Origin: a virus
Direction: 5' to 3' (one strand)
IMG/VR virus record: IMGVR_UViG_3300045972_000602
Length of the DNA stretch: 10,667 nt
Shown piece after piece: positions 4,291 through 4,677 of the stretch. How positions within the stretch are numbered: the stretch's first letter is position 1; the number at the start of each line of letters is the position of its first letter. The position numbers and the translations under genes were made by a program. Under the pieces are notes generated by a model, which did not search any database, was not told where the DNA came from, and saw only the letters and a program-made list of their open reading frames with translations.

Positions 4291-4677
4291 ATGGCTAAGC
4301 CTATCTTCGTCGCTGTGTACCTGACGGCTGAGTCGAAGGCCAAGCTGCTCGGCCTCGTGAAGCCGCTCCACACCAAGATCTTCGCCGAGCACATCACGCT
4401 CGCTTTCAAGCCCACCGACGCTCAGCTGGCCGAGTTCGAGCCCCTGCGCGGCAAGGCCGTCACGTTCACCGTGAACGCAGTCGCGGACGACGAGAAGGGC
4501 CAGGCCGTTGGCGTAAAGGAGTCGCTGCGCCTGGACGGCGGCGTCACTCACGTTACGATCAGCTGTGCGGACGGCGTCAAGCCCGTGTACAGCAACGAGC
4601 TTCTGGCCAGGAAGTGGTTCCTGCTGGAGCCGTTCACCCTCGAGGGCATATTCGACTACGCTCGCCATACGAAGTAA
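4291..4677 (+). CDS. 2H phosphoesterase superfamily protein (LigT/ThpR-like or cyclic phosphodiesterase-like), 128 aa
   Basis: A strong RBS, AGGGAGG, sits 6 nt upstream of ATG 4291. The protein has two H-x-T-x motifs with the right spacing: AEHITLAF (His34) and VTHVTISC (His93). These match the 2H family signature, for example E. coli ThpR HLTLAFLG. The ORF-track frame has an upstream extension (4213), but that extension overlaps the hairpin and has no RBS. Confidence 0.75.
   Translation: MAKPIFVAVYLTAESKAKLLGLVKPLHTKIFAEHITLAFKPTDAQLAEFEPLRGKAVTFTVNAVADDEKGQAVGVKESLRLDGGVTHVTISCADGVKPVYSNELLARKWFLLEPFTLEGIFDYARHTK

Follow-up and report, generated by a model that had tools for sequence, protein, structure and literature searches.

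The described enzymes closest to the phage protein analyzed here are CNPase, together with its fish relative RICH, and the CPD of Trl1, which represent a branch of the 2H superfamily concerned with the healing of RNA ends. The catalytic domain of CNPase and RICH comprises ~215 aa and, in the vertebrate enzyme CNPase, is fused to an N-terminal P-loop domain, while the Trl1 CPD is the C-terminal domain of a ligase-kinase-CPD polypeptide. Other 2H enzymes of similar fold have different substrates. Cyclic oligonucleotides or 2'-5' oligoadenylate, which serve as immune messengers, are degraded by Acb1, by cGAMP phosphodiesterases of poxviruses, and by the 2'-5' phosphodiesterases of coronaviruses and rotaviruses, while the CPDases of plants and yeast hydrolyse ADP-ribose 1'',2''-cyclic phosphate (Appr>p). 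RNA-repair proteins of the "Swiss army knife" (HAD_SAK) type were reportedly described by Burroughs and Aravind in 2016, and the function of the vault particle has, to our knowledge, been an open question since 1986. In jumbo phages, 2H, kinase, and cREC ("cyclic-phosphate processing receiver") proteins have been described as components of RNA repair (Iyer, Aravind and colleagues; PMC7824862, PMC9503650). Bacterial major vault protein (MVP) homologs are reported from operons with RtcB and non-coding RNAs (Burroughs and Aravind, 2016, cited in PMC13404743), and the shoulder of human MVP contains an NAD+/ADP-ribose pocket comprising R507, P508, H509, P565, and K573 (PMC12280208).

The locus considered here lies on 10,667 nt of viral DNA (IMG/VR record IMGVR_UViG_3300045972_000602), the whole of which is referred to below as the window, and the contig is assigned to a large (jumbo-type) phage because one of its genes specifies a divergent beta-like subunit of RNA polymerase, which shares 32% identity with the beta subunit that Salmonella phage Arash encodes (E = 3e-85). 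Its features are collected in Table 1. In our reading, which we give a probability of roughly 60% as a whole, the 2H protein is an RNA-end-healing enzyme of the CNPase/Trl1-CPD branch, acting with the kinase, possibly with the cREC protein, with a ligase that is absent from the contig, and with the MVP homolog as a scaffold. Compared to CNPase and RICH, the 128-aa protein is a trimmed core; it has no fused P-loop domain, the kinase being a separate gene, and it is a prokaryotic-viral protein that sequence profiles do not connect to the vertebrate enzyme. It resembles the Trl1 CPD in that PF08302 is its sole family match and in that kinase plus CPD follow the same healing logic, but it stands alone and no ligase is present in the locus. 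The likeness to the Swiss army knife proteins lies in homologs of the window 2H family that are fused to HAD_SAK_1, and the jumbo-phage repair sets likewise combine 2H, kinase, and cREC (Iyer et al., 2021, 2022); in contrast to both, the window has neither a HAD domain nor a ligase, and coupling to MVP comes in addition. With the bacterial RtcR|RtcB-MVP operon the window shares the same MVP family and an RNA-end enzyme immediately upstream on the same strand, whereas the bacterial operon contains RtcB and RtcR and the window, in a phage genome, has the 2H gene and no RtcR. T4 Acb1 belongs to a separate family, and its genomic associations differ too. On this reading, the enzyme itself is a new member of the known 2H RNA-end healing enzymes of phages.

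Table 1. Features of the 10.7-kb window, with the evidence for each.
Feature	Position	Strand	Evidence or remark
RNA polymerase beta-like subunit, divergent, partial	1..2835	-	Rpb2 domains 2 and 3
Structured non-coding leader	4053..4290	+	Palindromes, terminator-like hairpin, Shine-Dalgarno, RNA fold, no coding periodicity
2H gene, 128-aa minimal 2H phosphoesterase, CNPase/Trl1-CPD type	4291..4677	+	ORF, motifs
Apparently non-coding 1.15-kb spacer, 2H gene to MVP gene	4678..5825	+	No GC3 periodicity
Major-vault-protein homolog, 869 aa	5826..8435	+	Vault repeat, SPFH-like shoulder, cap-helix coiled coil
tRNA-like cloverleaves (two), both sub-threshold	8458-8534, 8638-8709	+	Relaxed ARAGORN, past MVP stop
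P-loop kinase, 156 aa, AAA_33 / polynucleotide-kinase-like	9156..9626	+	AAA_33 7.9e-7
cREC ("cyclic-phosphate processing receiver") gene	10285..10665	+	PF20274 2.4e-12; cut by contig end

The 128-codon reading frame of the 2H gene, proposed in an earlier note made from the sequence alone, is real: it runs from ATG to TAA, is preceded by the Shine-Dalgarno sequence GGGAGG (4280-4285, 5 nt before the ATG), and displays a third-position GC (GC3) periodicity that is strong, matches what the contig (~61% GC) shows in its remaining genes, and is absent from the stretches on either side. The leader upstream contains a 14-nt palindrome, CCCGGTCGACCGGG (4145-4158), and a 10-nt palindrome, CACCTAGGTG (4206-4215), both of which were read directly and agree exactly with the same note, as well as the hairpin that it had announced, GGGGAGACGTCCCC at 4248-4261, which is followed by T6 at 4262-4267 and was classed as terminator-like by a terminator scan. 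The scan counted four terminator-like sites where shuffled sequences gave 1.9 +/- 1.5, and the hairpin in the 2H leader is unremarkable when taken alone. By contrast with that single element, the 243-nt leader (4053-4295) is significantly structured, its folding energy (z = -3.76) being equalled by one of 200 shuffles. Between the terminator-like hairpin and the 2H start codon 23 nt downstream, neither a sigma-70-like promoter nor the promoter-like motif that recurs in the window was found, and expression of the gene by read-through or attenuation is as likely as the separate, regulated expression that the earlier note had suggested. The ACTAGGTG motif flanking the ORF was not significant.

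Two H-x-T motifs had been named as the basis for a 2H phosphoesterase assignment. The first, HITL, is located at His34 (codons 4390-4401) as claimed; the second, HVTI, is located at His87 (codons 4549-4560) and not at His93. A word-index search retrieved only 12 relatives of the protein, all metagenomic and unannotated. In an alignment of 12 sequences, H34, T36, and T89 do not vary and H87 hardly does; the family-wide conservation of both motifs shows that these tetrapeptides did not arise by chance. Motif II, moreover, runs into a strikingly conserved block with the family signature SCADGVKPVYSNELL. From the alignment of the word-index relatives, a confident AlphaFold2 model was built (pLDDT 89.2, pTM 0.81). 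It is compact, its elements following the order beta-alpha-beta-alpha-beta-beta / beta-alpha-beta, and a central strand begins at each H-x-T (E34-39 and E86-92). The model has the bilobed alpha+beta 2H fold with its internal duplication, and all of its significant fold matches are 2H proteins, which supports the superfamily call of the earlier note. Among the best 50 matches listed in a Foldseek search of the PDB, every one was CNPase or RICH, and the model superposes on CNPase at 1.8 A over 123 residues, which implies that the two catalytic histidines would be juxtaposed across the cleft; a fold search against known 2H structures, which the earlier note had suggested as a check, places CNPase first. 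The closest structures are of the CNPase / Trl1-type CPD, and not LigT, Acb1, AKAP7 or Usb1. The best matches among viral models were ~770-aa proteins of giant viruses, one of them annotated "RNA ligase," which fits Trl1-type ligase-kinase-CPD enzymes.

Sequence-based assignment points the same way with a narrower margin. The fungal tRNA-ligase CPD domain PF08302 is the only Pfam family matched, and marginally so (23.5 bits where the cut-off is 23; E = 4.4e-5), over just the region around motif II; the match nevertheless recurs in most homologs, including 16 of the 20 fused homologs scanned. A profile of the 2H sequences searched against PDB sequences did not reach CNPase and returned only spurious gp120 matches, and the relationship to CNPase therefore rests on structure. 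LigT-type models of Pfam and NCBIfam were unmatched, and LigT is not the closest fold, so that assignment to LigT/ThpR is rejected; that the protein is smaller than LigT/ThpR, an argument used before, is true, but it does not discriminate, as Acb1 (140-152 aa) is of similar size. Judged from the model, the protein belongs to the CNPase/Trl1-CPD branch within the 2H superfamily, as a cut-down form of 128 aa. Searches of 50,697 GenBank phage records gave no near or protein-level match for either the window or the 2H protein.

An exhaustive profile search revealed that this small protein belongs to a large family: a limit of E <= 1e-3 yields 3,642 cluster representatives and one of E <= 1e-10 still yields 1,567, the majority being standalone proteins of 125-150 aa. 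Of 20 longer members scanned, five have HAD_SAK_1 ("HAD domain in Swiss Army Knife RNA repair proteins") at the N terminus and two have the head of a PolyA_pol/CCA-adding nucleotidyltransferase together with its RNA-binding domain; a third fusion to such a nucleotidyltransferase (locus L047) falls inside the window's own subclade. As judged by the annotated partners, these fusions indicate RNA-end repair. All cellular members found in the genome collection are from CPR/Patescibacteria, and the fusion partners in CPR, like the neighbors in loci L007 and L048, carry no Pfam annotation. Neighbors pooled within 3.3 kb of 25 non-redundant 2H loci are heterogeneous, with recurring AAA_33 kinases, NADAR, Macro, and a nucleoside deoxyribosyltransferase-like family. 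Homologs of the window kinase adjoin the 2H gene in L054 and lie ~6 kb from it in L001-3, and in a rough neighbor-joining tree every MVP-linked and every kinase-linked 2H member is placed in one subclade.

The most distinctive association of this subclade is with MVP. The window MVP homolog matches Pfam MVP_shoulder (2.7e-25) and Vault_3 (3.3e-11), has the architecture of vault repeat, SPFH-like shoulder, and cap helix, and is similar to rat MVP (E = 1.6e-17), with rat and human MVP aligning at E ~ 1e-17 over residues 512-801. A 2H gene is located directly upstream of an MVP gene, on the same strand, in the window, in L004, L085, L007, and L048, and on the P0005 contig—that is, in six of the ~28 non-redundant loci that were informative, having at least 3 kb of downstream sequence. 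The P0005 contig is bacterial-looking, and L007 is a 108-kb viral contig. Because MVP homologs are rare, six such adjacencies are, by our estimate, far above chance. The linked 2H proteins are 38-54% identical to each other, and their MVPs about 40%. In L004, L085, and L048, the 2H gene runs at its end into the start codon of MVP, at an identical junction, ATGGCTGA, and the Shine-Dalgarno sequence lies inside the 2H 3' end; such an overlapping junction with an internal ribosome-binding site is the hallmark of translational coupling, which we accordingly assign to these three pairs. The pair is split in L007 by an inserted protein-coding ORF plus a terminator, and in the window by 1.15 kb, and no element common to the two spacers was found. 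A general rule does not follow from these cases: even at E <= 10, a 2H gene of this kind is absent from 20 other viral and three additional MVP loci, and MVP therefore does not need the 2H enzyme. As all six linked 2H proteins belong to one subclade, the linkage may have a single origin. A translationally coupled 2H-MVP module is not mentioned in the papers surveyed, among them a preprint on phage MVPs, one on bacterial MVPs, and the 2026 vault papers, but may already be listed by Burroughs and Aravind (2016).

Other MVP genes also keep company with RNA-end enzymes and with tRNAs. More than 6,000 homologs of the window MVP exist, and those nearest to it (~58-60% identity) are from Myxococcota, mostly Kofleriaceae. 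In the three Myxococcota chromosomal loci checked, a divergent RtcR gene is followed by RtcB and then by MVP, in keeping with the operons reported for bacterial MVP homologs. Going by gene order, the 2H gene of the window's subclade takes the slot beside MVP that is held by RtcB in the bacterial operon, and the exchange looks like the displacement of one RNA-end enzyme by another, as is typical of RNA-repair systems. In phages, MVP genes lie within arrays of 17-23 tRNA genes: 23 tRNAs begin 93 nt after MVP in L007, 19 are interleaved with RtcB and MVP in L083, and 17 flank MVP in L017, where a cREC homolog is encoded 5 kb after the MVP gene. In L016, a tmRNA is located downstream of MVP.

Two non-coding stretches flank the window MVP gene. 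The 308-nt stretch that begins right after the MVP stop codon holds the two tRNA-like cloverleaves, the first of which includes a canonical T-arm (8510-8526); Rfam recognises this T-arm alone and makes no tRNA call, and there are no true tRNAs in the window at default thresholds. With the ARAGORN threshold relaxed to 90%, three matches were obtained in the window, two of them after MVP, against an average of 0.37 in shuffled windows, and the chance expectation for the cloverleaves in the post-MVP stretch is about 0.01; they may be decayed tRNAs or tRNA-like RNAs. The spacer between the 2H and MVP genes contains a 17-bp hairpin (4891-4926) and a terminator-like site (5754-5770), and its folding scores (z of -2.8, -1.5, and -2.3) are only moderate. 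It matched no tRNA or Rfam family, and no relatives of it were found in the loci compared or in phage genomes. An apparent "Vault RNA" hit in this spacer (E = 8.2, 14 bits against a gathering threshold of 34, minus strand) was dismissed as noise. The spacer could be a long 5' UTR or a new non-coding RNA.

The kinase completes the set of candidate healing enzymes. As in the partnership known from CNPase and Trl1, a kinase accompanies the 2H protein; here it is encoded separately and unfused, 4.5 kb downstream of the 2H gene. It matches phrog_2071 (5.5e-20), the polynucleotide-kinase family phrog_505 (2.3e-4), and, weakly, bacterial Pnkp; its homologs keep the P-loop, S-x-D, N-T-N, and Arg without exception, and a search against PDB sequences gave no match. 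From these similarities the protein may be the 5'-OH kinase of a healing pair. Neither an RNA ligase nor Tpt1/KptA was found in the 10.7-kb window, which is an incomplete contig, or up to 10 kb away in the remaining 2H-MVP loci, and because of this the healing-and-sealing pathway is incomplete as seen.

In the mechanism that we propose, His34 and His87, with Thr36 and Thr89, would form a predicted metal-independent active site, by which the 2H enzyme would open the 2',3'-cyclic phosphate ends of RNAs, above all of tRNAs that host ribonucleases have cleaved; the product is expected, by analogy to CNPase and Trl1, to carry a 2'-phosphate and a 3'-OH. Phosphorylation of the 5'-OH end would fall to the kinase, further cyclic-phosphate species may be handled by the cREC protein, and a ligase from the phage or the host, not encoded on the incomplete contig, would seal the break. 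We infer that the 2H enzyme works on or in a scaffold or compartment based on MVP because it is genetically, and often translationally, coupled to the MVP homolog. Much more tentatively, damaged tRNA ends could be handled by a prokaryotic or phage MVP assembly that resembles a vault and has this minimal CNPase as its dedicated partner, translationally coupled to it and serving as cofactor or cargo. MVP particles might then have begun as RNA-end-repair compartments carrying either RtcB or a 2H enzyme plus kinase, and the phage would deploy its MVP particle to protect the translation apparatus from host ribonucleases, perhaps with the involvement of the 1.15-kb non-coding region and the tRNA-like elements that flank MVP.

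Other substrates have to be weighed against RNA ends. The earlier note had given precedence to an Acb1-type, anti-defense role. The enzyme would then degrade host cyclic-oligonucleotide or 2'-5' oligoadenylate immune messengers, as other viral 2H enzymes do. The Acb1 Pfam model (PF23474), however, did not match the 2H protein at E <= 1, although it recovered the T4 Acb1 positive control (gene 57B) at 2.7e-60; hhalign against T4 Acb1 gave a probability of 5.8% and aligned only a generic "PHIT(I/L)S" stretch, BLASTP of the two proteins produced no alignment, and PADLOC reported no match. On these results, membership of the Acb1 family is rejected. Structure and context agree: the score of CNPase is nearly twice that of Acb1, whose models reach a TM of only 0.49, and the 2H fusions and neighbors examined belong to RNA-end repair, none of them having to do with CBASS, Pycsar or Thoeris. 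Nothing points to activity on cyclic oligonucleotides, and messenger degradation appears very unlikely, whereas the healing of 2',3'-cyclic-phosphate RNA ends, which the same note had listed as its alternative, is favored by the evidence. Hydrolysis of Appr>p or of an NAD-derived cyclic phosphate, within an NAD/ADP-ribose conflict network, would bring in a possible tie to nucleotide binding by the MVP shoulder, but the human NAD-pocket residues align to T/T/N/E/D in the window MVP, meaning that the pocket is not conserved. The structural score of the Appr>p CPDase is, furthermore, about half that of CNPase, no sirtuin or Tpt1/KptA able to generate Appr>p was seen in the window, and the direct fusions to HAD_SAK and the CCA-adding nucleotidyltransferase point to RNA ends instead, so we regard this substrate as improbable.

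The tie to MVP is a separate matter, as the protein could be a standalone housekeeping 2H enzyme whose position next to MVP is inherited synteny within one phage/bacterial lineage. The confinement of MVP-linked 2H proteins to one subclade would be expected from such synteny, as would the 23 MVP loci without a 2H gene and the interrupted pairs of the window and L007. Against it, the linkage persists at 38-54% identity of the 2H proteins and ~40% of the MVPs, extends over phage-like contigs as well as one whose genes are of bacterial type, and is too frequent among the informative loci, given how rare MVP homologs are, for chance adjacency to be a likely source; the overlapping stop/start junction, moreover, has been kept in three loci. 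A purely inherited neighborhood without a functional tie thus seems an unlikely account, and an RNA-end-healing enzyme of the CNPase/Trl1-CPD branch, associated with the MVP homolog, is the reading that we prefer.

For the family, this places ~130-aa 2H proteins that form thousands of clusters, and that are essentially unannotated in databases, in RNA-end healing and not in Acb1-type anti-signaling, a distinction that matters for the correct annotation of phage counter-defense genes. For MVP, whose link with RtcB is known from comparative genomics, the locus adds a second RNA-end enzyme of different chemistry, of the CNPase/Trl1 type. The linkage hints that vault-like proteins and RNA-end repair cooperate, and a two-gene system of 128 aa plus about 870 aa makes the connection between MVP and RNA repair testable.

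Next to the 2H phosphoesterase gene, the window encodes a major-vault-protein (MVP) homolog, to which the MVPs of Myxococcota are approximately 60% identical; an RtcR|RtcB-MVP operon surrounds the latter in all three of the chromosomal Myxococcota loci checked (L082, L090, and L091). Three other, diverged loci share an identical 2H-MVP junction, ATGGCTGA (L004 3843-3850, L085 615-622, and L048 4562-4569), at which the genes overlap, with the MVP start lying within the 2H stop region and a GGAGA Shine-Dalgarno sequence upstream, and the synteny KTSC-2H-MVP-Zn_ribbon_Top1 is common to L004 and L085. 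Elsewhere, the 2H domain itself is fused to other sequence: in CPR/Patescibacteria it is joined to C-terminal regions of approximately 330 aa or N-terminal regions of approximately 250 aa, which gave no Pfam match and represent uncharacterised partner domains.

Features of the window and 2H fusion ORFs of other loci
Feature	Position	Strand	Remark
RNA polymerase beta-like gene	1-2835	-	partial, divergent
48-nt direct repeat	2821-2868, 3432-3479		perfect core 2843-2860, 3454-3471; upstream of two small ORFs
Three small ORFs	3132-3359, 3599-3925, 3918-4052	+	clear coding periodicity
Perfect 13-nt inverted repeat	3543-3555 (GTCCCGGGCAGCG), 4194-4206 (CGCTGCCCGGGAC)		flanks small ORFs at 3599-4052
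17-bp hairpin	4891-4926		within 2H-MVP gap
Terminator-like site	5754-5770		within 2H-MVP gap
MVP homolog	5826-8435	+	full-length, 869 aa; in phage contig
Two tRNA-like cloverleaves	8458-8534, 8638-8709	+	sub-threshold (relaxed ARAGORN); directly 3' of MVP stop codon
Additional small membrane-protein ORFs	8744-8980, 9950-10282		putative
AAA_33 kinase	9156-9626	+	polynucleotide-kinase-like
cREC (cyclic-phosphate processing receiver) domain gene	10285-10665	+	incomplete at contig end
CPR/Patescibacteria 2H fusion ORFs	L011 1073-2476; L051 924-2327; L015/L072		384-aa ORF in L015/L072

Phage MVP genes are also found enclosed by large arrays of tRNA genes (L007 13782-20046, with 23 tRNAs; L083 280-15397, with 19; L017 708-12511, with 17); RtcB is located amid the tRNA genes of L083, and in L016 a tmRNA gene (12465-12843) lies downstream of MVP. 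The first tRNA-like element of the window has a canonical T-arm, GCGGGUUCGAAUCCUGC; both elements were detected by relaxed ARAGORN only, with no call from the Rfam tRNA model. Further downstream, the kinase has an unusual P-loop (G-G-G-K-D-T), and its homologs adjoin 2H homologs in L054 and lie close to them in L001-L003. A cREC gene also occurs approximately 5 kb downstream of MVP in L017, whose MVP is 54% identical to that of the window.

The 1.15-kb gap between the 2H and MVP genes (4678-5825) showed no coding periodicity, known RNA family, or relatives, and may represent a long 5' UTR or an ncRNA of unknown type. The three small ORFs that precede the 2H gene lack family matches and encode cysteine motifs of the CxxC type or a segment predicted to lie in the membrane. 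The direct repeat in this region, with the core GGTATAAGAAT(G/A)TATCGA, resembles a promoter or a regulatory motif of a phage: two copies of the motif occurred in none of 200 shuffles, a weak copy is present at 4954-4967, and no copy was found upstream of the 2H gene. The inverted repeat has its right arm inside the structured leader that precedes the 2H coding sequence.

The product of the RNA polymerase beta-like gene shares 32% identity with the Salmonella phage Arash beta subunit, and a homolog of this gene occurs together with a 2H homolog in L071. The presence of this gene implies that the window derives from a jumbo-type phage encoding its own multisubunit RNA polymerase.
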